Part shown: positions 21,237 to 33,957 of the stretch, piece by piece
How the letters are laid out: every line of letters begins with the position of its first letter
Position numbering within the stretch: position 1 is the stretch's first letter
Assembly (NCBI GenBank): GCA_021325455.1
Contig: JAJPHD010000009.1
Coordinates: 65,792-129,791 of the forward strand
Source: Actinomycetota bacterium
Lineage (GTDB): Bacteria; Actinomycetota; Acidimicrobiia; Acidimicrobiales; JAJPHD01
Direction of reading: 5' to 3'
Length of the DNA stretch: 64,000 nt
Translations under genes and position numbers: made by a program
Notes under the pieces: model-generated
The model's database searches: none
The model's input: the letters and a program-made list of their open reading frames with translations, nothing else
What the model was told of the DNA's origin: nothing

Positions 21237-22346
21237 TCACCCGCCATCCCGCCGGCTTCTCTGCCAGCGCAGGTAGGCCTCCATGAACTGGTCAAGCTCC
21301 CCGGAGAGCACGGCTTCCACGTTCCCCGTCTCCTCCCCGGTGCGGAGGTCCTTCACCAGCTGGTAGGGGGCGAGCACGTAGGAGCGGATCTGGTTCCCCC
21401 AGCCGATGTCGCCCTGGGGCCCGGATATGGCGTCCAGCTCCGCCCGCCGCTCAGCCCTCTGGCGTTCCGCCAGCTTGGCGGCCAGGATCTGGAGGGCCCG
21501 GGCCTTGTTCTGGAACTGGCTGCGCTCGTTCTGGCAGGAGACGACGATGCCGGTGGGAAGGTGGGTGATCCGCACCGCCGAGTCCGTGACGTTCACGTGC
21601 TGGCCGCCCGCTCCCGAGGACCGGTAGGTGTCGATGCGCAGGTCCTTCTCGTCCAGGTCGACCTCGTCACTGGCATCCTCCATGAAGGGGACCACATCCA
21701 GCGAGGCGAAGCTGGTCTCCCGCCTGTGGGCGCCGAAAGGGGATATGCGCACCAGCCGGTGGACCCCCCGCTCGGCAGCCAGCAGGCCGTAGGCGTAGCG
21801 GCCCCGGACGATGAAGGTGGCCGAGAGGATGCCCGCCTCCTGGCCCGGTGACACCTCGTCCACCTCCACCGAGAAGCCCCGGCGCTCGGCCCAGCGCAGG
21901 TACATGCGGAGCAGCATCTCGGCCCAGTCCTGGGCATCGGTGCCCCCCGCACCGGCATGGATGTCGGCCACCGCGTCCCGCTCGTCGTACTCCCCCCCGA
22001 AGAGGGCCCGTAGCTCGAGGGCATCGAGCTCCCTCGACAAGGAGGCCACGGCGGCCCCCACCTCCTCCTCGACTGAGTCATCCTCCTCCTCGACGGCCAG
22101 CTCGTACAGGGTCTTGGCGTCCGAGAGGCGGCCCCCCAGGGACTCGAGGAGGTCTATGTCGTCCTTGGCCCGGCCGTAGGCGGTGGTGACCTCACGAGCC
22201 CGGTCCGGGTCGTCCCACAGGTCGGGGCGCGCCACCTCCGCCTCCAGGGACTGGAGCTCGGCACGAAGCCGGGGGAGGCCGAGGTAGGCCTCGGCCTCCT
22301 CCACCCGCTTGGCCAGGGTGGCCAGCTCCCCGCTGAAGTCGCGCAC
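21237..22346 (-). CDS. prfB: Peptide chain release factor 2
   Basis: SPF and GGQ motifs, QIRSYV. Single continuous ORF. Confidence 0.96.
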   Translation of the reverse strand: MRDFSGELATLAKRVEEAEAYLGLPRLRAELQSLEAEVARPDLWDDPDRAREVTTAYGRAKDDIDLLESLGGRLSDAKTLYELAVEEEDDSVEEEVGAAVASLSRELDALELRALFGGEYDERDAVADIHAGAGGTDAQDWAEMLLRMYLRWAERRGFSVEVDEVSPGQEAGILSATFIVRGRYAYGLLAAERGVHRLVRISPFGAHRRETSFASLDVVPFMEDASDEVDLDEKDLRIDTYRSSGAGGQHVNVTDSAVRITHLPTGIVVSCQNERSQFQNKARALQILAAKLAERQRAERRAELDAISGPQGDIGWGNQIRSYVLAPYQLVKDLRTGEETGNVEAVLSGELDQFMEAYLRWQRSRRDGG

Positions 22347-22358
22347 GGCCGGGGCTGC

Positions 22359-25238
22359 TCAGGAGCGGCCGTGGCAGAGCTTGTACTTGCGCCCGCTGCC
22401 GCACCAGCAGGGCTGGTTGCGCCCCATCCTCTCCGGCTCCGGGCGGCCGGCCGGGCCGAGGCCGCCCCTGGCGGGCGGACCTGGCGGATAGGCCACCCCC
22501 GCCTCGGGCGGTCCCGGCTCCTGCCAGGTCGGCCGGCGATCGGCACCTCGTGGCCCCGCCGGGCCGGGAGGGGATGGCGGGGCACCGGCCTCAGAGGCGG
22601 GGAGCGGACCTCCGAGCACCCCATGCCCCTCCTCTCCCAGCGTGGCCAGCTCTGCGGCCGCCAGCTGGGACGCCGTCAGCTGGTCGGTGAGAACCGAGAG
22701 GTCCTGCACGGGCTCCCCTGCGCCCAGGTATTGGGCCTGGGCCAGGTCGGGCTCGGGACCGGTCTCCTCCAGGACCTCGACATGGAGCACGTAGCGGAGA
22801 TAGTCCTCGTCTATGGAGGCCATCATCTGGCCGAACATCTGGTAGCCCTCCCGCTGCCAGCTCACCAGAGGGTCCTGCTGGCCCATGGCCCTCAGGTTGA
22901 TGCCCTCTCTCAGGTAGTCCATCTCGGCCAGGTGCTCGCGCCAGCGCTGGTCGATTATCTGCAGCATGATCTCGCGTTCCAGCTCCCGGGCGGTCTCGGC
23001 TCCCCCGGGCATCTCGGCCTCCCGCCTCTCGTAGTACTCCAGCGCCTCGGCCAGGATGCTCTCGGCGATCTGCTCCGTGCTCACTGCCTCGGCCAGGTCC
23101 TCAGCGGTGAACTCGGTCGGGTAGTACTGGTGCACCTCGGCCACCAGCCGCTCGAGGTCCCAGTCCTCGGGGAACTCCCCGGGGCAGGTGTCGGCCACGA
23201 TGGTCTCGATGGCCGACTCCAGGAGCTCCACCGTCCGTGCCCGCAGGTCCTCACCGTCGATGATCTGCATGCGCCGGGCGTAGATCACCTTGCGCTGCTC
23301 GTTCATCACCTCGTCGTACTTGAGGACGTCCTTGCGGATCTCGGCGTTGCGCGCCTCGACCGTGTTCTGTGCCCGCTCTATGGCCTTGGTGACCATCCGG
23401 GCCTCGATGGGCACGTCTTCGGGCAGGGCCTTGCCCATCACCCAATTCATGGCACCGGTGGCGAAGAGGCGCATGAGCTCGTCCTCGAGGGAGAGGAAGA
23501 ACCGGCTCTCCCCGGGGTCCCCCTGCCGTCCGGACCGGCCCCGCAGCTGGTTGTCGATCCGACGGCTCTCGTGGCGCTCGCTGCCGAGCACGTACAAGCC
23601 GCCCAGCTCCTTGACGCGCTCTCCCTCCATCCGGCACTGTTCGGCGAACTTGCTCACCAGCTCGGCGAGCCGGGCCCTGCCCTCCTCGCTCGACGGGTCG
23701 GTTCCTTCGGCCAGCGCCTCCTGGAGCGCCAGGCCCTCCGGGTTGCCCCCGAGGATGATGTCCACTCCCCTACCGGCCATGTTGGTGGCCACGGTCACGG
23801 CACCCAGGCGCCCGGCCTGGGCAACGATCTGGGCCTCCCGGGCGTGCTGCTTGGCATTGAGGACGTGATGGGGTATCCCCCGCTGGGTGAGAAGGCGCGA
23901 GAGCTGCTCCGACTTGGCCACCGATGCGGTGCCGACCAGGACCGGCTGCCCCCGCTCGTGACGCTCGGCGATGTCCTCCACCACGGCAGCGAACTTGCCC
24001 GCCTCGGTCTTGAAGATGACGTCCGAGTGGTCGACGCGGATCATGGGGAGGTTGGTGGGGATCGGGACCACCGGGAGGTTGTAGGTGTTGGCGAACTCGG
24101 AGGCCTCCGTCTCGGCCGTCCCCGTCATGCCTGCCAGCTTCTCGTAGAGGCGGAAGTAGTTCTGCAGGGTGACGGTGGCCCAGGTGTGGTTCTCCTCCTT
24201 GATGGTCACCCGCTCCTTGGCCTCCACGGCCTGGTGCAGGCCGTCCGACCAGCGGCGGCCTTCCAGGATGCGCCCCGTGAACTCGTCTACGATCTTCACC
24301 TCCCCCTGGGCCACGATGTAGTCCTTGTCCCTCTTGTAGAGCTCCTTGGCCCGCAGAGCCTGGGTGAGCTGGTGGACGTAGTTCACCGCCACCGCCTCGT
24401 ACAGGTTGTCCAGGCCCAGCTGGCGCTCCACCTTGGCGATCCCCTCCTCGGTGGGGACCACGGTGCGCTTCTCCTCGTCCACCTCGTAGTCCACGTCCCT
24501 GCGCAGGGTGCGGGCCACGCTGGCGAACTGGTAGTAGAGGCGAGCCGACTCCGTCGCCGGCCCTGAGATGATGAGCGGGGTCCTGGCCTCGTCTATGAGT
24601 ATGGAGTCGACCTCGTCGACGATCGCATAGACGTGCTCCCGCTGGACCATGGCGTCCCTGGTCCGGCACATATTGTCTCGGAGGTAGTCGAAGCCGAACT
24701 CCGTGTTGGTCCCGTAGGTGACGTCGCACTCGTAGGCCGCCCTCCGCTCGGCCGAGTCCTCCATCGTGGGCAGGACGAGACCCACGTCGAGTCCAAGGAA
24801 GCGGTATATCTGGCCCATCCACTCGGCGTCCCGGGCGGCGAGGTAGTCGTTCACCGTCACCACGTGGACGCCTCGGCCCGTCAAGGCGTTGAGGTACACA
24901 GGCAGGGTGGAGACGAGGGTCTTGCCCTCGCCCGTCTTCATCTCGGCGATCCAGCCGAAATGAAGGGCCATGCCCCCCATGAGCTGGACGGGGAAGTGCC
25001 GCTGGCCGATCGTCCTCCTGGCTGCCTCCCTGACCACGGCGAAGGCCTCGACCAGCAGGTCGTCGAGATCCTCGCCCTGGTCCAGCCGCTCCCGGAACTC
25101 CACCGTCTTGTGGGCCAGGGAGATGTCGTCCAGGGCCTCGACCTCGGGCTCCCTCCCCTCGATGATGGGCACGATCTCGGCCAGCCGCCGGACCTTCTTG
25201 CCCTCGCCGGCCCGGAGCAGCTTGGTGAACATGCTCAT
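22359..25238 (-). CDS. secA: Preprotein translocase SecA
   Basis: MKTGEGKT, DEVD, QLRGRSGRQGDPG, C-terminal CWCGSGRKYKLCH. Confidence 0.98.
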   Translation of the reverse strand: MSMFTKLLRAGEGKKVRRLAEIVPIIEGREPEVEALDDISLAHKTVEFRERLDQGEDLDDLLVEAFAVVREAARRTIGQRHFPVQLMGGMALHFGWIAEMKTGEGKTLVSTLPVYLNALTGRGVHVVTVNDYLAARDAEWMGQIYRFLGLDVGLVLPTMEDSAERRAAYECDVTYGTNTEFGFDYLRDNMCRTRDAMVQREHVYAIVDEVDSILIDEARTPLIISGPATESARLYYQFASVARTLRRDVDYEVDEEKRTVVPTEEGIAKVERQLGLDNLYEAVAVNYVHQLTQALRAKELYKRDKDYIVAQGEVKIVDEFTGRILEGRRWSDGLHQAVEAKERVTIKEENHTWATVTLQNYFRLYEKLAGMTGTAETEASEFANTYNLPVVPIPTNLPMIRVDHSDVIFKTEAGKFAAVVEDIAERHERGQPVLVGTASVAKSEQLSRLLTQRGIPHHVLNAKQHAREAQIVAQAGRLGAVTVATNMAGRGVDIILGGNPEGLALQEALAEGTDPSSEEGRARLAELVSKFAEQCRMEGERVKELGGLYVLGSERHESRRIDNQLRGRSGRQGDPGESRFFLSLEDELMRLFATGAMNWVMGKALPEDVPIEARMVTKAIERAQNTVEARNAEIRKDVLKYDEVMNEQRKVIYARRMQIIDGEDLRARTVELLESAIETIVADTCPGEFPEDWDLERLVAEVHQYYPTEFTAEDLAEAVSTEQIAESILAEALEYYERREAEMPGGAETARELEREIMLQIIDQRWREHLAEMDYLREGINLRAMGQQDPLVSWQREGYQMFGQMMASIDEDYLRYVLHVEVLEETGPEPDLAQAQYLGAGEPVQDLSVLTDQLTASQLAAAELATLGEEGHGVLGGPLPASEAGAPPSPPGPAGPRGADRRPTWQEPGPPEAGVAYPPGPPARGGLGPAGRPEPERMGRNQPCWCGSGRKYKLCHGRS

Positions 25239-25396
25239 GGCGGTTCCATGCTACCGGCCCTGGCCTGGGCGTCCCGGGCGGGCAGCTACGGTCATTTCGC
25301 CCGGGATCCTCCCTGTGGCCCAGGAGAGGGCGGGGATCGCCCTGGGCCCGGCGCCCGCCGGGCTGCACGGGTCCGGGCCGCGCCGGGGAAGAGCTC

Positions 25397-26116
25397 TCAG
25401 AGCCCGTCGGTCTCTATCAACCTCTCCCGCACGGCGTACATGACAGCCTGCATCCGGGAGTGCAGATGGAGCTTCTCCAGGATGTTGCGGACGTGGTTCT
25501 TGACCGTGTTGTCGGAGATGAACAGGCGCTGCCCGATCTCCCGGTTCGAGAGCCCCTTGGCGGCCAACCCCAGGACCTCGAGCTCGCGTCCGGTGAGGAC
25601 GGGGGCGGGGAAACGAGCCTCGGCCCTCTCGGCCAGGGCCGAGAACTCGCTCAGGAGCTTGGCGGCCATGGAAGGCGTGATGAGGCTCTGGCCCTGGGCC
25701 ACGGCCCGGATGGCATCGGCCACCTGCTCGACAGAGATCTCCTTGAGCAGGTACCCGCTGGCGCCCGCCTTGACCGCCTCGAAGAGGTCCTCGTCCTCGT
25801 CGCTCACGGTGACCATGAGGATCTTGGTCGTCGGTGCCAGGGCGTGCACCGCTCGGGCCGCTTCGATACCGGTCACCTTCGGCATGCGTACGTCCATCAA
25901 GATGACGTCGGGAGCCAGCTCCTCGGCCTTGGCGACCGCCTCCTCCCCGTCCTCGGCCTCGGCCACGATCTCGATGCCCGGCTCGTCGGCCAGCACCGCC
26001 CTCAACCCCCGGCGGAAGAGGGCTTGGTCGTCGGCGATGATGACCCGCAGGGTCTGGTCGCCCGGGCCGAGCCCGGTCTCCACGCCGGTCTCGATGTCGG
26101 TGTCGGTCACGGTCAC
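25397..26116 (-). CDS. NarL/LuxR-family response regulator (no adjacent kinase)
   Basis: IADDQ, LMDVRMP receiver, LTGRELEVL...TVKNHVRNILEKL HTH. Confidence 0.92.
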   Translation of the reverse strand: MTVTDTDIETGVETGLGPGDQTLRVIIADDQALFRRGLRAVLADEPGIEIVAEAEDGEEAVAKAEELAPDVILMDVRMPKVTGIEAARAVHALAPTTKILMVTVSDEDEDLFEAVKAGASGYLLKEISVEQVADAIRAVAQGQSLITPSMAAKLLSEFSALAERAEARFPAPVLTGRELEVLGLAAKGLSNREIGQRLFISDNTVKNHVRNILEKLHLHSRMQAVMYAVRERLIETDGL

Positions 26117-26124
26117 CCCTTCGC

Positions 26125-26769
26125 TCAGATGGAGTCGATGAGGCCGATGTCCCCGTCGTTGCGCCTGTAGACCACCGCCGGCCGGTCCGTCTCTGCGTTC
26201 GTGAAGAAGAAGAAGTCGTGGGCCAGGAGGTCCATCTCGAGCACGGCCTCCTCCGGTGTCATGGGCTTGATGGCGAACTGCTTGACCTTCACGATCCGGC
26301 CGGCCCCGTCCACCGCCCCAGCCCCTCCTGCCTCATCGAGCTCCTCCTCTCCGGTGCCCGGGCTGACGCCGCCGCGCCGGGCAGAAGCGGGGCGGGAACC
26401 CGGGCGACGAACGGGGGCGGCCCCGCCAGCGGCCGCCACCTTGGGGCTGGCGTGGTGGCGGGGGTGGGACCGGCCCACCAACCTTCCCTTCAGCTTCTCC
26501 ATCCGGTGCTCCAGCTTGTCCAGCACCCGATCCACGGCCACGAGGGTGTCCGCCGCCGACGCCCGGGCCCGCAGAACCGTACCACGTCCCACGACCCTGA
26601 CCTCGCAGACCTCCTTGTCCGCTATGCGGGGGTTGCGCTCCTCGGTGAAGTTCACCTCGGCCCGCTCCACCCCGTCCAAGTACCTGCTCAGGTGCCCCAC
26701 CTTCTCCTTCACCACGGACCGAACGTCCTCGGGCACCTCGACGTTGCGGCTACGGATGGAGATGTCCAA
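26125..26769 (-). CDS. hpf: Long-form ribosome hibernation promoting factor (HPF/RaiA)
   Basis: ISIRSRNVEV...ERNPRI N-domain, PMTPEEAVLEMDLLAHDFFFF...VVYRR C-domain. TTG start with AGGGAG RBS. Confidence 0.93.
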   Translation of the reverse strand: MDISIRSRNVEVPEDVRSVVKEKVGHLSRYLDGVERAEVNFTEERNPRIADKEVCEVRVVGRGTVLRARASAADTLVAVDRVLDKLEHRMEKLKGRLVGRSHPRHHASPKVAAAGGAAPVRRPGSRPASARRGGVSPGTGEEELDEAGGAGAVDGAGRIVKVKQFAIKPMTPEEAVLEMDLLAHDFFFFTNAETDRPAVVYRRNDGDIGLIDSI

Positions 26770-26894
26770 CGCTGGCTCCCTTGCTCGTGTGGGCCGAAGC
26801 CCAAAGGTGGGGTCCGGAGGTCCGCGCCGCCTCCAGGTGGCGGTGGCCCCCCTCGGCGGGCAGTGCCCCGGGGGTCCCGGCGGGATGGAAAGGC

Positions 26895-27174
26895 GATGGG
26901 CAACGTGCGGCTGACCTGGTCTTTGCCCCCACACTCGCCTGCGGAGGAGGTGGCCGGCCGGGAGCCGGCGGCCGTGGGCCCGGGGCCCACCGCCCTGCAG
27001 CCCCCAGGGTGGCCGGCGTCGCTCCTTCACCGCCGGAGGCCGCCCATCGGCCTCTCAGCAGGCAGGTCTTACTCCTAAGCCGCACCATGCTCAGCAACCA
27101 CGGGTCGCCTTACGTGGGTCGTTTCGCCTGCGGCTGGCGTCGACTTGCAACCACAGACCCGCACGCAGCCCATC
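26895..27174 (-). ncRNA. raiA-motif structured RNA
   Basis: Minus-strand blocks GGTCTGTGGTTGCAAGTCGACGCCAGCCGCAGGCGAAACGACCCACGTAAG, TGAGCATGGTGCGGCTTAGGAGTAAGACCTGCC and GCAGGCGAGTGTGGGGGCAAAGACCAGGTCA match the raiA consensus as I recall it. Closing stem GATGGGC..CGTGCGG/CCGCACG..GCCCATC. Sits upstream of hpf. Confidence 0.88.
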
Positions 27175-27181
27175 CCCCGCG

Positions 27182-27187
27182 AGTGTA
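27182..27187 (-). promoter_or_regulatory. Candidate -10 element (TACACT) for the raiA RNA/hpf transcript
   Basis: TANNNT located 7 nt upstream of the 5' closing stem. Confidence 0.6.
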
Positions 27188-27234
27188 GGCCTGCGGCGCA
27201 GGCGGTGCGGGAGGGAGGTGGGGAGCCCCGGACC

Positions 27235-28296
27235 TCAGCCCTGGCGGAGCTGGCTCTTCAACCGGGTGAGCACGGGGGCAGGGCCGGGGTCTATGCCTGA
27301 CTGAGCTGCCAGGTGGAGCGAGACGAAGTCGCCGATCATGACCAGGTCGAGCAGCTGAGCCAGCTCCCCCTCACCGGCGGCCCGCACCTCGCACACGTCG
27401 GCCACCGCTCCGGCCAGGATCTCGCCCACCAGGGCAAAGCGCCGGGCAACCTGGGGGTGCTCTCCGTCGTGGCGGAGGTTCACGACCGTGATGAGCTTCC
27501 TGGTCACGTCGGCCAGCCTGGCCCAGCCCTCGACCTCGTTGTGGCACAGCTCGGGGTAGACGGCCCAGAAGGCCGGGGACTTGGCGTTCTCGTTGACCTG
27601 GGTCTTCCACCGCAGGGCAGCGGTCATCCCCAGGGCGCGCGAGCTGTGGACGAGGGGGATGGTGTTCCCTATCCTGGCCGCCACTTCGGCCGCCACGCTG
27701 TCCCCCCCGAGAAGCTGCTCCCGGCGGCGCCGGAGCTGGGCCACAGCCAGCTCCACCCAGCGGGAAGCGCCCGGGAACAGCCCGATGGACTCCAGCACCA
27801 CCAGGATGGGGATCGCCATGGCGCCGATGGCGGCCCGGGGCTCGGGCAGGTCGCGGGGCACCCCGACCAACGGGAGCTCGGCTCTCTGGGCCAGCTCGGC
27901 CAGCTGGCCGCCCCCGGTCACCACGACCATCTTGGCCTGCTGGCCGAGGCTCTCCCCGGCGGCCTCGACCGTCTCCTCGGTGTCGCCCGACCACGACACG
28001 GCGAAGACCAGGCTGGCTGGGCCCACGAAAGCCGGGGGGGTGTAGGACTTGACGACCGTCACCGGTACTGGCAGGTAGGGGCCCGCCACCGCCAGCACCA
28101 CGTCGCCGGCCACGCCGCTACCCCCCATGCCCAGGACCACCACGTTCTCGATCTGCTCCCGGGCGGGCAGCCCCGCCACGTCCGCCGCCCGCTCGGCTGC
28201 CGACGCCACCTGATCGGGGAGGCCGGCGTGGGCCTCCAGCATGCCTTCGCTGTCCAGCGCCCCCAGTCCCGGCACGCGCCCGGCGAGGTCGCTCAC
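27235..28296 (-). CDS. Bifunctional phosphoglucose/phosphomannose isomerase (SIS)
   Basis: GMGGSG, SWSGDTEET, NENAK, PELCHNE. GTGA overlap with Trm112 gene. Confidence 0.9.
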   Translation of the reverse strand: MSDLAGRVPGLGALDSEGMLEAHAGLPDQVASAAERAADVAGLPAREQIENVVVLGMGGSGVAGDVVLAVAGPYLPVPVTVVKSYTPPAFVGPASLVFAVSWSGDTEETVEAAGESLGQQAKMVVVTGGGQLAELAQRAELPLVGVPRDLPEPRAAIGAMAIPILVVLESIGLFPGASRWVELAVAQLRRRREQLLGGDSVAAEVAARIGNTIPLVHSSRALGMTAALRWKTQVNENAKSPAFWAVYPELCHNEVEGWARLADVTRKLITVVNLRHDGEHPQVARRFALVGEILAGAVADVCEVRAAGEGELAQLLDLVMIGDFVSLHLAAQSGIDPGPAPVLTRLKSQLRQG

Positions 28297-28628
28297 GTCG
28301 CCGTCTCCTCGCCAGGCCGGGGATGGGGAGGGCCGGAGCCGGCCTCGCTGGCGAGGTCTCCTGGCCTGGACGAGGGCGACCCGGCCGGGGCCCCGGGGTC
28401 GAAGGTGGGCTTGATGCCCTCGGCCTCGGCTTTGGCCATCAGCCGGGCGTGCTCCTCCTCCCCCACCGACTCGGCCTCCTCCACCAGCATGATGGGGATG
28501 TCGTCCCTGATGGCGTAGCGCCGGCGGAGGCGGGGGTTGTAGAGGGACTCCTCGTCGGCGAAGTAGAGGAGAGGGCCCTTGTCCTCGGGGCAGGCCAGGA
28601 TCTCCAGGAGCATGGGGTGCAGGGGCAT
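28293..28628 (-). CDS. Trm112/UPF0434 family protein
   Basis: LLEILACPEDKGPL...YAIRDDIPIMLVEEA. Confidence 0.9.
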   Translation of the reverse strand: MPLHPMLLEILACPEDKGPLLYFADEESLYNPRLRRRYAIRDDIPIMLVEEAESVGEEEHARLMAKAEAEGIKPTFDPGAPAGSPSSRPGDLASEAGSGPPHPRPGEETAT

Positions 28629-28630
28629 GG

Positions 28631-30088
28631 CTACCTTCCTTCGTCCCTCGGGCCCCCAGCGTCGTCGGCGGCGGCCGAGGCGCCCTTGCCACCGGAGCCC
28701 GGCCCGTCCCCGCCCGGCGTCCCCGCCCGGGCGGCCTCGAGGGCGGAGAGGACCTCCGCCACGTGGCGGTCGCAGGAGGCCCGGTCACCGGCCTCCAGGT
28801 TGAGGCGGAGAAGGGGCTCGGTGTTGGAGGGGCGCAGGTTGAACCACCAGTCGCCCAGGTCGGCGGTGAGCCCGTCCAGCCGGTCGAGGGAGGCCCGCCC
28901 GGCGTAGGCAGCCTCCATGGCGTCTACGACCGACCGGGGGTCGTCCACTTGGATGTTGATCTCCCCGGAGTTGGCGTAGCGTTCCAGGGGCCGGCGCAGC
29001 TCCGACAGGGGCTGACCCGCCCTGGAGACGACTTCCAGGACCACGGCGGCGGCGATCAGCCCCGAGTCCGCCCGGTAGTTGTCCCGGAAGTAGTAGTGAC
29101 CGGAGTGCTCCCCCCCGAAAACGGCCCCGGTTTCGGCCATGACGGCCTTGATGAAGGAATGGCCCACCCGGGTACGCACAGGAGTCCCCCCGGCCTCAGC
29201 GATGACCTCCGGGACCACCTTGGAGCAGATGAGGTTGTAGAGGATGGTGGCTCCGGGGTGCTTGGCGAGCATGGCCTGGGCCACGAGGGCAGTGGTGATG
29301 GAGCCCGAGAGCGGCTCGGCTTGGTCGTCGACGAGGAACACCCGGTCGGCGTCACCGTCGAAGGCCAGGCCGACGTCGGCGCCCGTCTCGCGCACCCTGG
29401 CCTGGAGGTCCACCAGGTTCTCGGGCTGGATGGGATCGGCAGGATGGTTGGGGAAGGTCCCGTCCAGGTCCCCGTAGAGGATCTCCAGGCGGAAGGGGAG
29501 CCGCTCGAACACCCGGGGGACCACCAGCCCGCCCATGCCGTTGGCGGTGTCGGCCACCACCCGGAGGGGTCTGAGCGAGGCGGCGTCGACGAAGGACACG
29601 ACGTGGTCCGCGTACTCGTCCAGGAGGTCCATGCGCTCGACCCGGCCCGGGCCGCTCCCCCCCGACCCTGGTTCGCCCCCCCCGGCCTCCTCCTGGAGGG
29701 CCATGCGCTGGATCTCGGCCAGTCCCGTGTCCTGCCCCACCGGGCGGGCCCCTGCCAGGCACAGCTTGATCCCGTTGTAGCGGGCCGGGTTGTGGGAGGC
29801 GGTGAACATGGCTCCCGGGGCGTCGAGGTGCCCCGACGCGAAGTAGAGCAGGTCCGTCGAGGCCAGGCCGAGGTCGACGACCGCCGCCCCCTCGGCCGTG
29901 GCCCCGTCCACGAAGGCCGCCACCAGCTCCGGGCCGGAGGGCCGCATGTCCCGGGCCACCAGCAGGCGCTCAGCGCCTGTGAAGCGGGCAAAGGCGGCCC
30001 CGACTGCCCGGGACAGGGCAGAATCCAGCTCGTCAGGAACGACGCCGCGCACGTCGTAAGCCTTGAAGACCGAGGCTGGAGCGGGCAT
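28631..30088 (-). CDS. manB: Phosphomannomutase/phosphoglucomutase
   Basis: FKAYDVRG, TASHNP, FDGDADR, GGEHSGH, RPSNTEP. Confidence 0.94.
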   Translation of the reverse strand: MPAPASVFKAYDVRGVVPDELDSALSRAVGAAFARFTGAERLLVARDMRPSGPELVAAFVDGATAEGAAVVDLGLASTDLLYFASGHLDAPGAMFTASHNPARYNGIKLCLAGARPVGQDTGLAEIQRMALQEEAGGGEPGSGGSGPGRVERMDLLDEYADHVVSFVDAASLRPLRVVADTANGMGGLVVPRVFERLPFRLEILYGDLDGTFPNHPADPIQPENLVDLQARVRETGADVGLAFDGDADRVFLVDDQAEPLSGSITTALVAQAMLAKHPGATILYNLICSKVVPEVIAEAGGTPVRTRVGHSFIKAVMAETGAVFGGEHSGHYYFRDNYRADSGLIAAAVVLEVVSRAGQPLSELRRPLERYANSGEINIQVDDPRSVVDAMEAAYAGRASLDRLDGLTADLGDWWFNLRPSNTEPLLRLNLEAGDRASCDRHVAEVLSALEAARAGTPGGDGPGSGGKGASAAADDAGGPRDEGR

Positions 30089-30188: not shown

Positions 30189-33002
30189 CTAGGGGTCCCG
30201 GGCCTCCACCAGCTCGCGTTCCCCGGCTCCTGAGTCAGCGCCCGGGCCCGCAGGAGGCTCGCCGGGGCCGTCCTCCCCTTCCTCGCCGCGCCGGCCCCGG
30301 GCCCTCTCCAGCAGGGGCCTGTGCTCCGGCATGGGCACTGGCCCGCGCCAGCCCATCCACACCACGCCGGCCAGGCCGGCCAGGGTGACGGCGATGCCGG
30401 CCCAGTCCCCCTTGGTCCTGCCGTAGACGAGGGAGACATGGTGGGAGCTCGGGACGACCACCATCAGGTTGGGGGTCACCCTCCAGGGGCCCCGGGCCCC
30501 GTGGGCCTGCCAGTTCGGGAAGTACGAGGTCTTGACCAGGACCGGGGTGCCCGTCCTCGTGACGTCGAAGCTGATGCGGTTGTCGCCCTGGCTGACATGG
30601 CTCACCGCTGTGGGGGGAACCGGGACCGCCGGCGTCCGCTCGTGGGCGTGCTGCCCACCCAGGTCCAGGGTGCTGGCGCGGACCCGAGGCCACGATGGGG
30701 GACCGCTCTCGGCCAGGACGACCCCCCAACGCCGGGGGTGCATGTACCAGGGGATCGAGACCTTCAGCCAGCCGGGGCCCGTCCTCGCCACCGCGGTGAG
30801 GACCACTGGTCGATGAGACAGGGGCACCACCGTCGAGGAGTCGTGGACCAGGTAGATGTCCCAGGTGCGCTTGATGGTCTTGTTGCCCACGACCGTGGGC
30901 CACGGCCCGGAGGTGGCGATCCTGGTGAGGGAAGGGTCCCGGGCGGCCTGGGCCTCGGCCTGGGGCGTGAAGGCCATGTAGTAGCGGACGCCCAGCAGCT
31001 GCAGGTGCTGGACGCCCGCGGCCACGTCCAGGGGCCCGTAGGGAAGGTTGGCCTCCGCCTCCGACGGGTGCAGGGAGAGCTCGGCCTGGTTGATGAAGTG
31101 GTAGGGGGTGGTGGCCGAGGACTCGAACAGCAGGCCCTCCATGGAATCGATGCAGCCCCGTGTCCAGAAGGGCAGGAGCATCAGGGCCATGGGCGTGCCG
31201 AGATCGTTGAGCTCGGGCCCGTACTCCCACATGGCCCGGCCGCAGCCGTACCGCTTGCCCACCCGGGCCATGGTGCGCATGAGGGCGTGGTACTCGGGCC
31301 AGGTCGACTTGCCCTGGTAGCCCGAGTAGTTCCAGCGCACCCAGTCGGGAACGAAGCTCTGCTGCACCGGGATCGGGATCCACGAGAGCCCGAGGGGCAC
31401 CACCACCACGGCTGCCGCCGCCACCCCGGCCAGGAGGGGGGTGGCCACCGCTGCCACCGGGCCCGCCCGGGTGAAGCCCCGGAGGTCCCTCCCCGCCGCC
31501 ATGTGGGCCACCGCCTCCGGCCTCCAGCGACGGGCCCGCCTGGCCAGCTTGACGAAAGGCCCGACCCCCGAGCCCTCGGCCAGGGCCACCCACAGGTCAA
31601 AGGCGGCCGGGCCCAGAGACGGCTGGCGCCGAGCGAGGTGGGCAGCCTCGCCCAAGGCCTCCTTCAGCTCGTAGGCGCGGGCCAGGTCGGGATCGAGGTC
31701 CAGGGCCACCCGGGCGGCATCCCTCTCGCCCTGACCCCAGTCAGTGGGGTCCTGGTCCAGGTCGGCCCGCTCCCTGGCCAGGGGGTCGAGGCCCTGCCTG
31801 ATGGCCTGCACCAGCTCGGGATGACCGGCGAACCGCCTCGCCACCTCGTCCCCCGTCGCCCAGAGCGCCCCCAGGGCCGCCTGGCCCAGGTTCCGGCGTC
31901 CCGGCCAGCGCGCCTTCCTGCGCCCCCACAGGTCGGCAGCCAATATCCCCAGCTCGGCCGCCGCCACCCCCGCCAGCAGGTACACGCAAAGGATCCAGAA
32001 GGGCAGCAGGCGGGCGTTGTAGAGCTTGCTCGTGGGGTCAAGGATGAACATGGCGGCGGACAGCCCCGCCATGACGATCAGGAAGGTCCCCACCCTCCGG
32101 CGCCGGACCAGGGAGATCACCGCTCCCACGGCGGCCAGGGCCACCGCCCACAGCAGGCTCTCGGGGAACATGCTGGCCACGTAGGTTGTGACCTTCTGCC
32201 AGCCCATGTTGGTCGTGTAGGGCAGCCCCAGGTAGAAGGGGATGACCCAGAACCCGGTGATGGCCACGCCTGCCGCCGCCACCGTCACCGCCCAGCGCAG
32301 GCGGTAGCGGTCCCACCGGGCCAGGACCAGCACGACAGCCCCTATCCCGGCCCAGAAGGCGGGCACGAAGTGGCACAGGGCGGACACGGCCAGAAGGAAG
32401 GCGGCCAGGGCCCGGCGCTTCCCGGTCCGCAGGCCATCGGCCACGAGGCCAAGGAACATGAGGGCAAAGGCCAGGCTGAGGGAGAAGCCGAACTCCCCGG
32501 CCAGGGTGGAGGCGATGTTGCCTCCGTAGATGGTGAAGCTCTGGTCGAAGAGGAAGGGCAGCGTGGCAGCTGCCAGGCAGGCGGGGCCGGGCCGGCGCAT
32601 ACCCGCTCCCCGCCCAAAGAGGTAGGCGCTGAGCGGCAGCAGCAGCGAGCCCGCCGCCGTGACCAGCTTGAACGCCACGTTGTAGGGGGCGACCAGGTTG
32701 AGGATGGCCACGAAGAGCGCCGGCAGCGGGAAGTAGAAGGTGTACTGGGGATAGCCGTCGTACCACCAGGGGCTCCAGCCCGTGAGGCGGAAGTGGGGGA
32801 GCAGGTGGTGCTCCATGTACCAGGGCAGGGCCACGTGGGCGCCGGTGTCACCGCCGGCGGTGGTGGTGTTGGCAAAGAGGAGAGAGGGGTCCAGCTGCCA
32901 GAAGACGAGCGCCGTGGCCCCCCCCACGACGAGGACGGTCACCAGGTCAGGGAGGCTGAGCTGCGGCAGGAGGCGGAGGGCCCGATGGCGCATCCCGCCC
33001 AT
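30189..33002 (-). CDS. Large polytopic GT-C-like membrane protein (PTPS-related/YfhO-like) with an internal ISL3-transposase-like segment
   Basis: GGDTGAH, GWSPWWYDGYPQYTFYFP, GGNIASTLAGEF, many TMs. C-terminal VLVKTSYFPNW...PNLMVV plus final TM. Start 33002 or 32993. Confidence 0.85.
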   Translation of the reverse strand: MGGMRHRALRLLPQLSLPDLVTVLVVGGATALVFWQLDPSLLFANTTTAGGDTGAHVALPWYMEHHLLPHFRLTGWSPWWYDGYPQYTFYFPLPALFVAILNLVAPYNVAFKLVTAAGSLLLPLSAYLFGRGAGMRRPGPACLAAATLPFLFDQSFTIYGGNIASTLAGEFGFSLSLAFALMFLGLVADGLRTGKRRALAAFLLAVSALCHFVPAFWAGIGAVVLVLARWDRYRLRWAVTVAAAGVAITGFWVIPFYLGLPYTTNMGWQKVTTYVASMFPESLLWAVALAAVGAVISLVRRRRVGTFLIVMAGLSAAMFILDPTSKLYNARLLPFWILCVYLLAGVAAAELGILAADLWGRRKARWPGRRNLGQAALGALWATGDEVARRFAGHPELVQAIRQGLDPLARERADLDQDPTDWGQGERDAARVALDLDPDLARAYELKEALGEAAHLARRQPSLGPAAFDLWVALAEGSGVGPFVKLARRARRWRPEAVAHMAAGRDLRGFTRAGPVAAVATPLLAGVAAAAVVVVPLGLSWIPIPVQQSFVPDWVRWNYSGYQGKSTWPEYHALMRTMARVGKRYGCGRAMWEYGPELNDLGTPMALMLLPFWTRGCIDSMEGLLFESSATTPYHFINQAELSLHPSEAEANLPYGPLDVAAGVQHLQLLGVRYYMAFTPQAEAQAARDPSLTRIATSGPWPTVVGNKTIKRTWDIYLVHDSSTVVPLSHRPVVLTAVARTGPGWLKVSIPWYMHPRRWGVVLAESGPPSWPRVRASTLDLGGQHAHERTPAVPVPPTAVSHVSQGDNRISFDVTRTGTPVLVKTSYFPNWQAHGARGPWRVTPNLMVVVPSSHHVSLVYGRTKGDWAGIAVTLAGLAGVVWMGWRGPVPMPEHRPLLERARGRRGEEGEDGPGEPPAGPGADSGAGERELVEARDP

Positions 33003-33111
33003 CCTGCCTGATCGACCCCCTGGGCGCAGATCGCCCCCCGAAACGGCACCTCCGCCCGTACCGCCCTCCCTGTCCCCGGACCGGTGCTGCCAGCGGGCAG
33101 GGGCCCCGCTG

Positions 33112-33957
33112 TCAGTGCAAGCGGGCCAGAGCCAGGGCCACCACCGTCGCGCAGTTGAAGGTGGCGTGGGCCACGATGCCAGGCCCCAGCCGGTGGAAGG
33201 CCTCGGCCAGCACACCGAGGACGAGCCCGAAGACCCCGAGCCCCAGGGCGATGATGAGCCCCTCGCCATGGGCCAGCCCGAAGGCCGCCGCCGTCGCCAC
33301 CACGGCCACCGCCGGTCCGGCCCACCGGCCCGCCACCGCCAGGCTCCGGTCCAGGGAGCGCAGGAGCAGACCTCGGAAGAACAGCTCCTCCACCACCGGT
33401 GCCCCCAGCACGATGAAGACGGCCAGCACGGCGAAGCCCGCCCCCCGGGCGTGGCCGGTGAGGGAGAGCGCAGGGTGGGACAGCACCCGGTTGAGATGGG
33501 GGAAGGAGGGCCTGAGGGGTATGTAGACCGCCGGCACCAGCACGAACTGGGATCCGAGGCCCGCCGCCACGCCGATGGGCAGGTCCGGCCAGGGCCGGAG
33601 GCGCAGGCCGAAGTCCCTGCTCAGGCGGCCCGACCCCCACGCCCGGCTCGTCACCAGGGCAGCACCGAGGAGGCCCACCCAGAGCCCGACCAGGCTGGCT
33701 ATGACCACGGCAGGCACCTGCTGGGGCCGTCCCGACGAGGTGGGGACCCCCCCGACCAAGGTCACGACGGCGACCAGGACGGCGGAGACGAGCGAGCCCA
33801 CGAAGAAGCCTGCTGCCGCCAGCAGGACCCCCCAGGGGCTGGAGCCCGGCCTGGCAAAGAGGGTGGACCGGTCCCGGTGCCTGCCAGGGGTGAGGCCGCC
33901 CTGCGGCCGCGGGGGCCGGGCGGGGGGCTCCTCCCCCGAAGCCAGGGTCCTGCTCAG
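33112..33957 (-). CDS. CPBP (CAAX/Abi) family intramembrane metalloprotease
   Basis: EELFFRG, FGLAH, AHATFN motifs. Start uncertain (CTG 33957 or GTG 34071). Confidence 0.85.
   Translation of the reverse strand: MSRTLASGEEPPARPPRPQGGLTPGRHRDRSTLFARPGSSPWGVLLAAAGFFVGSLVSAVLVAVVTLVGGVPTSSGRPQQVPAVVIASLVGLWVGLLGAALVTSRAWGSGRLSRDFGLRLRPWPDLPIGVAAGLGSQFVLVPAVYIPLRPSFPHLNRVLSHPALSLTGHARGAGFAVLAVFIVLGAPVVEELFFRGLLLRSLDRSLAVAGRWAGPAVAVVATAAAFGLAHGEGLIIALGLGVFGLVLGVLAEAFHRLGPGIVAHATFNCATVVALALARLH

Follow-up and report, generated by a model that had tools for sequence, protein, structure and literature searches.

The raiA motif, or ModT, RNAs are a described family of structured noncoding RNAs (Weinberg 2017, PMC5737381; Soares 2024, PMC10861870; Lence 2024, PMC11706538), and the class Acidimicrobiia has been listed among their carriers (Soares 2024, PMC10861870). 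In the survey reported there, comFC is upstream of 74% and raiA/hpf downstream of 66% of raiA RNAs, 26% being without comFC, and a response regulator gene, secA and prfB are given as common neighbors. The RNAs of C. acetobutylicum and C. difficile are reported to be abundant, stable and trans-acting, to be transcribed from a housekeeping promoter and to affect the transition to stationary phase and sporulation (PMC10861870, PMC11706538). Cryo-EM structures of Ca-raiA, from C. acetobutylicum, and Ns-raiA, from Nocardioides, are described in PMC12968392, as is the binding in vitro of KhpA/KhpB to four different raiA RNAs at about 2 micromolar; the C. difficile study reports that no KhpB association was seen (PMC11706538). 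Our literature search found no paper on the transcription of raiA RNA in Actinomycetota; Dataset S1 of PMC10861870 may hold Acidimicrobiia contexts.

We analyzed a 64,000-nucleotide stretch of DNA (the window) in which the spacer upstream of hpf holds a genuine copy of this already described RNA. Published work already covers the family, its occurrence in Acidimicrobiia and contexts without comF, and the copy in the window brings nothing new on the raiA fold. The account developed below, which we regard as very probably correct as a whole, is that of a single raiA (ModT) gene encoding a self-folding, pseudoknotted RNA of about 280 nt, with a -10-only promoter, read-through into hpf and a function in trans. 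The transcriptional arrangement, with a promoter apparently shared with hpf and with no comF found, provides a modest but usable comparative lead.

A raiA RNA in the spacer upstream of hpf

The sequence-only reading had placed a raiA-motif RNA of about 280 nt in the 465-bp gap between a PGI/PMI gene and hpf, and had suggested a search with the Rfam raiA covariance model. The gap is as described, with the PGI/PMI stop codon at 27237-27235 and the TTG start codon of hpf at 26769-26767, and the search bore out the identification. Rfam family RF03072 (raiA) matched at 26902-27167 on the minus strand, the strand of all features described below, with a score of 127.2 bits (E 6.4e-31), above the gathering score of 101.3, and the cmscan alignment covers the full model (positions 1-209 of 209). 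This was the sole Rfam match in the whole window at gathering thresholds. When a 7-bp extension of the closing stem P1 is added to the match, the RNA occupies 26895-27174, which agrees with the proposed extent. The RNA is single-copy in its own genome (2.95 Mb in 28 contigs, 96% complete), where the search returned an identical score; a single copy per chromosome is also what is seen in the family, whose members come from Bacillota or Actinomycetota.

Matches above the gathering score were found in 22 of 41 genomes of the same order, its own included, and in 57 of 151 sampled genomes of the phylum, the latter tally including two genomes flagged as unpublished (G127 and G187). The 80 nearest HPF loci, which come from MAGs titled Acidimicrobiales, Acidimicrobiia or Actinomycetota, were searched with two conserved motifs, by which 26 were found to carry the RNA just upstream of hpf; Rfam confirmed all 26 at the predicted coordinates, and found no raiA in the 14 that were checked of the 54 motif-negative loci. 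The two locus sets were pooled and, after removal of six identical RNAs, yielded 42 distinct Acidimicrobiales-type loci. It should be noted that the order-level counts (41 genomes, 22 RNAs, 42 loci) include G003 and G004, two further genomes flagged as unpublished.

Secondary structure, pseudoknot and subtype

The window RNA was aligned with RNAs from 21 relatives in the same order (n = 22, with 8 nt of flank on each side, and including L018 and L016 from the flagged genomes G003 and G004, respectively). We counted 53 hand-placed pairs in the P1 extension, P1a-c, P3a/b, PK1, P4, P5 and P6. Standard pairs occupy 95.3% of the cells, against 90.1 +/- 0.4% in shuffled alignments, and both sides of the pair have changed at 22 pairs, against 8.7 +/- 1.9 in the shuffles. 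None of 500 shuffles reached any of five covariation measures, and sliding the partner by 1-3 columns lowered pairing to 31-45%. The three conserved blocks proposed from the single sequence (27159-27109, 27093-27061 and 26942-26912) recur as runs of invariant columns in the 22-RNA alignment, and the same blocks are the high-confidence parts of the cmscan alignment.

The RNA is closed by the terminal stem that had been predicted, in which GATGGGC (27174-27168) pairs with GCCCATC (26901-26895) and CGTGCGG (27165-27159) with CCGCACG (26910-26904). The first of these helices is the P1 extension. Its inner four pairs are formed in 20-22 of the 22 RNAs, with several pair types and compensatory changes; its outer three are unsupported, being formed in only 8-13. 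For P1 proper (5' strands 27149-27165, 3' strands 26904-26921) we took the P1a/b/c layout from PMC12968392: P1a (27165-27159) is followed by a GT bulge, P1b (27156-27154) and P1c (27153-27149), and on the 3' side P1c (26921-26917) is followed by a GGT bulge, P1b (26913-26911) and P1a (26910-26904). P1a and P1b together are 98.2% paired, with changes on both sides at 7 pairs, and both bulges are invariant in the 22 RNAs. P1c and P4 are themselves invariant in all 22, so that covariation is uninformative for both.

Within P1 lies the P3 hairpin (27118-27144), composed of P3a (GTCG/CGAC) and P3b (GCC/GGC) separated by an asymmetric AC/GAAA internal loop. Pairing in P3a and P3b is complete (100%), and P3a has one compensatory pair. 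The apical loop of P3b is the 5' arm of the pseudoknot PK1, AGCCGCA (27135-27129), which pairs with TGCGGCT (27078-27084) between P5 and P6. PK1 is formed in all 22 RNAs, that is, in 100% of cells, and two of its seven pairs have changed on both sides (C-G to U-A and A-U to G-C). The 5' arm of P4, CCACG (27113-27117), pairs with TGTGG (26933-26929). P5 (27093-27109) is a hairpin, GGCGACC-CGT-GGTTGCT, that is 85-99% paired and has changed on both sides at 4 pairs, and P6 joins CCTGC (27062-27066) to GCAGG (26942-26938) with 100% pairing. PK1 is followed by a single-stranded 10-nt linker, TTAGGAGTAAG, of which T98, T99, A100, G101, G104, T105, A106, A107 and G108 are invariant. The bases of PK2 (two Watson-Crick pairs plus G-A pairs) are likewise invariant, and PK2, being also too short, was left out of the pair count.

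Four long-range complementarities had been proposed from the sequence, some of them necessarily crossing as pseudoknots. Three are real helices: AGCCGCA/TGCGGCT is PK1, the only pseudoknot among them, GCAGG/CCTGC is the stem P6, and CCCACG/TGTGGG is the stem P4, which is nested and was counted as five base pairs. The fourth, GGTCT/AGACC, is not a helix, since the published structure and the pair counts make its GT a bulge and assign CTG/CAG to P1b and GACCA/TGGTT to P1c. The other AGACC, which follows GTAAG, is not conserved, its A being replaced by C or T in most relatives.

RNA lengths among the relatives range from 174 to 344 nt, and the large insertions and deletions are confined to peripheral stems. 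In the window RNA the long P7 hairpin (27030-27061, limits approximate) has an 11 + 11 nt insertion relative to the model in the cmscan alignment, and P7 is variable among the relatives. The P8 arm (26945-27026, limits also approximate) carries a G+C-rich expansion, of 60 nt against 18 in the model; its length in relatives is highly variable, and in some the arm is missing.

The core is that of raiA/ModT, with P1a/b/c and their GT and GGT bulges, P3a/P3b, P4, PK1 and P6, and the single-stranded TTAG..GTAAG linker is common to the window RNA and the family. Like Ca-raiA, which has no P2 and has P8, the window RNA lacks an insertion between P1c and P3a, hence P2, and possesses P8, enlarged by about 60 nt. 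Its P7 is long, as in Ns-raiA, in which all eight stems are present and P7 has 14 bp. The junction reads G-C-A-A in the window RNA and G-A-A in Ca-raiA. The window RNA is thus of a subtype without P2 and with P7 and P8, both enlarged. Two members of the window's own taxonomic family, G002 (L022) and G004 (L016), have an insertion at the P2 position and no P8 (columns 29-64 and about 190-409 of alignment A1). Opposite P2/P8 make-up within one family indicates that structural subtypes mix or switch among close relatives.

A candidate promoter element and the connection to hpf

A TACACT hexamer of the TANNNT type, which the sequence-only reading had named as a -10 element, is found at 27187-27182, 7 nt before the stem begins. 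In all 22 loci of the first set and all 42 distinct loci, a hexamer of this type ends 10-15 nt ahead of the Rfam start. These counts speak for conservation and are not a probability; since related genomes are not independent, they overstate the statistical weight. The background frequency of TANNNT is 0.00099 per position, and only one other was found in the 80 nt upstream across all 22 loci. The spacing is kept whatever gene lies upstream, which supports the proposal that the RNA has a promoter of its own: at the 42 loci this gene is comF in 22 (plus one in which it is further away), AdoHcyase (S-adenosylhomocysteine hydrolase) in 9, PGI/PMI in 7 (plus one further away) and another gene in 2. 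At 30 loci from other Actinomycetota (L108-L137), TANNNT ends 9-16 nt before the start in 27, with a background of 0.0086 per position. A sigma-70 two-hexamer scan of 26000-27600 returned no promoters, and there is no evident -35 element; promoters of actinobacteria are often -10-only. The raiA RNA would accordingly be transcribed from a -10-only promoter of housekeeping type. From the position of the hexamer, the predicted transcription start falls in three G residues at 27174-27176, 6-8 nt downstream, and the transcript would then begin where the extended closing stem P1 does. No RNA sequencing run was listed for 26100-28100.

Downstream, hpf (26125-26769) encodes a long hibernation-promoting factor of the raiA family (214 aa; Pfam Ribosomal_S30AE, 8e-17, and Ribosom_S30AE_C, 6.9e-26), as in the typical raiA/ModT context. 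Its TTG start appears to be correctly placed, as tblastn alignments begin at residue 1 in 19 of 22 relatives' loci. The earlier suggestion that the RNA is linked to hpf rather than to comF agrees with the gene order: in 39 of the 42 distinct loci the RNA is followed on its strand by hpf, more than have comF upstream, and in the remaining three a response regulator gene or secA comes next instead. The gap between the Rfam end and hpf has a median of 46 nt (range 23-287 nt) and does not exceed 60 nt in 28 loci. That of the window is among the longer ones, at 132 nt from the Rfam end or 125 nt from the end of P1; this spacer (26770-26894) contains an AAGGGAG ribosome-binding site at 26782-26776. 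The window RNA differs from the published raiA/ModT members in its closeness to hpf and in having no evident terminator ahead of that gene. The comparison suggests that the published rule of a large distance between the RNA and the downstream gene fails in Acidimicrobiales and in part of the other Actinomycetota.

Neither TANNNT nor even a TA dinucleotide occurs in the window spacer, and TANNNT was found in the RNA-hpf gap at 1 of 19 loci in one set and 0 of 26 in the other. The scan of 26000-27600 for terminator-like sites found none on the RNA strand and one on the plus strand. The fold of the spacer (26760-26900) is no stabler than those of shuffled sequences (z 0.12), and we therefore propose no attenuator or switch. 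The 3' arm of P1 is followed by CGCCTTTCC, a weak U run with TTT three bases past P1. Within 22 nt past the model end, 1 of the 42 loci has a U-rich run, defined as at least 5 T in 8 nt; among the other Actinomycetota 17 of 30 have one, a difference confounded by base composition, the other genomes being lower in G+C. In those 17 the run directly follows the P1 extension, and the closing stem may there double as a terminator stem. The gaps to hpf in the other Actinomycetota are bimodal, with one group of 9 loci (26-47 nt) and another of 11 (127-494 nt).

Informative in this respect are the 54 hpf loci without the RNA, of which three lacking upstream DNA were omitted. All 51 examined have a TANNNT in the 300 nt ahead of hpf; in 49 of them it is the only one within 400 nt, and in most it begins 39-43 nt before the hpf start. 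In the nearer RNA-less relatives the hexamer is TACACT, 19-275 nt upstream of hpf. Seven of these combine TACACT, which is 265-275 nt upstream of hpf in L060, L061 and L064 and 106-174 nt upstream in L030, L052, L055 and L057, with long leaders. These long leaders (about 100-270 nt) gave no Rfam match even at E values up to 1, raiA included; they may be decayed remnants of the RNA or be of another nature. Because TANNNT precedes hpf in loci with and without the RNA, its simplest reading is as the hpf promoter, with the RNA lying between it and hpf. Because no terminator and no second -10-like element separate RNA and gene, transcription most likely continues into hpf. On these comparisons, the raiA RNA is probably co-transcribed with hpf from the hpf promoter.

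Other readings of the locus were weighed against this one. The RNA might be an independent unit as in Clostridia, ending right after P1, with hpf served by a separate promoter, for example one for a stress sigma factor, within the 125-nt spacer. The raiA RNAs of C. acetobutylicum and C. difficile are reported to be independent transcripts with their own terminator(s) (PMC10861870, PMC11706538), and the terminator-tail-like U-rich runs of other Actinomycetota, together with the TTT past P1 in the window, fit such an arrangement. The window gap is long enough for a promoter, and could conceal one that serves a different sigma factor, or a terminator lacking a U tract; in close relatives, though, it shrinks to 23-30 nt, too short for a terminator plus a promoter. 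With a spacer devoid of TA, an RNA strand devoid of terminator-like sites and the same kind of hexamer ahead of hpf in RNA-less relatives, we consider independent transcription unlikely. Highly improbable, in our view, is that the RNA is a cis-acting hpf leader, such as a riboswitch-like or stability element. Its strand, its short distance from hpf and the promoter shared with hpf in 39 of 42 loci would suit a leader, Rfam labels the family 'Cis-reg; riboswitch', and the authors of PMC11706538 leave an ancient-riboswitch origin possible. Trans complementation in two clostridial species, however, rules out a purely cis role there (PMC10861870, PMC11706538), ligand binding was not found in vitro (PMC5737381), and expression platforms are described as typically not associated with raiA RNAs (PMC10861870). 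In the loci studied here, moreover, the ribosome-binding site has no conserved pairing, the spacer fold is unremarkable, and three loci have the RNA without hpf next to it.

That the region codes for protein, as an N-terminal extension of hpf or an overlapping ORF, or that the Rfam match arose by chance in G+C-rich DNA, has a practically negligible probability. In favor of coding, the reading frame of hpf stays open as far as 27030, and the region is overlapped by five other ORFs of at least 93 aa; but Pfam gave no match for any of the four overlapping frames tested, and the coding reading was rejected. The alignments of relatives' HPF proteins begin at the TTG at 26769, indels are confined to peripheral stems while helix pairs covary, and an E value of 6.4e-31 argues against chance.

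If the RNA is co-transcribed with hpf, read-through would extend into hpf and possibly into the response regulator gene, so that RNA and hibernation factor would come from one promoter; the compact RNA would then be freed by processing or would persist through its own stability. By homology with its clostridial relatives, from which alone a function in trans is carried over, the mature RNA would be abundant and stable, would act in trans and may affect the transition from growth into stationary phase. The genome has genes for both KhpA and KhpB/Jag, which shows the availability of partners only. In E. coli, 6S RNA (ssrS) is co-transcribed with a downstream ORF and cut from the longer transcript. 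As an abundant, stable, growth-phase-linked RNA that shares its promoter with a downstream protein gene, it offers a possible analogy for the RNA-hpf unit, although it is unrelated to raiA RNA in sequence, structure and partner. One may go further and suppose that in Acidimicrobiales the raiA RNA is an obligatory 5' part of the hpf transcript, made in fixed proportion with HPF and playing a role at the hibernating ribosome, as a partner of HPF or a cis modulator of its synthesis, the adjacency to comF elsewhere being an accident of synteny; this we consider distinctly unlikely. The independence of the RNA from comF, described below, and its nearly constant placement between a conserved promoter element and hpf point experiments to ribosome hibernation rather than to DNA uptake.

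Gene neighborhood and comF

The family tends to have comFC upstream; in the window, the upstream gene is a bifunctional PGI/PMI-type sugar isomerase (27235-28788; Pfam bact-PGI_C, 4.6e-39), whose listed ORF probably overstates the length of the gene. It is preceded by a phosphomannomutase-type gene (28631-30088). At the place where comF usually lies, the window sequence is contiguous and has PGI/PMI instead. The absence of comF had been noted from the window, and searches of the whole genome are in line with it, in that the gene was not found: TIGR00201 gave no more than a 26-bit match, limited to the last ~35 model positions and lying in a frame of 364 aa, and the ComF protein of a relative, used as query, had no match in the 96% complete assembly. 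Across the 41 genomes, TIGR00201 matches are of a full type, with most or all of the model and 31-90 bits, or of a partial type, with the last 35-60 positions, 20-30 bits and frames mostly of about 330 aa. Full-type comF is present in 12 of the 22 RNA-bearing genomes, adjoining the RNA in 9 and elsewhere in 3, and is missing from the other 10, including the genome studied here and all four RNA-bearing members of its family. It is also present in 16 of the 19 RNA-less genomes, in one of which it is cut by a contig end. These co-occurrence counts indicate that RNA and comF are largely uncoupled in this order, for which the published 74% with comFC upstream leaves room.

Downstream of hpf are a LuxR-type response regulator gene (25397-26116; Pfam Response_reg, 1.7e-28, and GerE, 1.4e-21), secA (22359-25238) and prfB (21237-22346), matching the common raiA neighbors given in PMC10861870. 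Of 21 loci from relatives, 12 have the response regulator gene immediately behind hpf in the same orientation, and in two others it immediately follows the RNA. Further upstream in the window, a 1026-aa ORF (30189-33269, minus strand) has both a PTPS_related membrane domain (1.2e-08) and a weak match to the transposase family DDE_Tnp_ISL3 (4.8e-07), an odd pairing that may reflect an over-long ORF call in G+C-rich DNA. The order pmm, PGI/PMI, (AdoHcyase), (comF), raiA RNA, hpf, response regulator, secA, prfB, which corresponds to 21237-30088 of the window, recurs in L010, L014, L015, L019 and L020, with AdoHcyase and comF present or missing within it. This order appears similar to a shortened form of the actinobacterial sahH-mtrAB-lpqB-comF-hpf-secA neighborhood.
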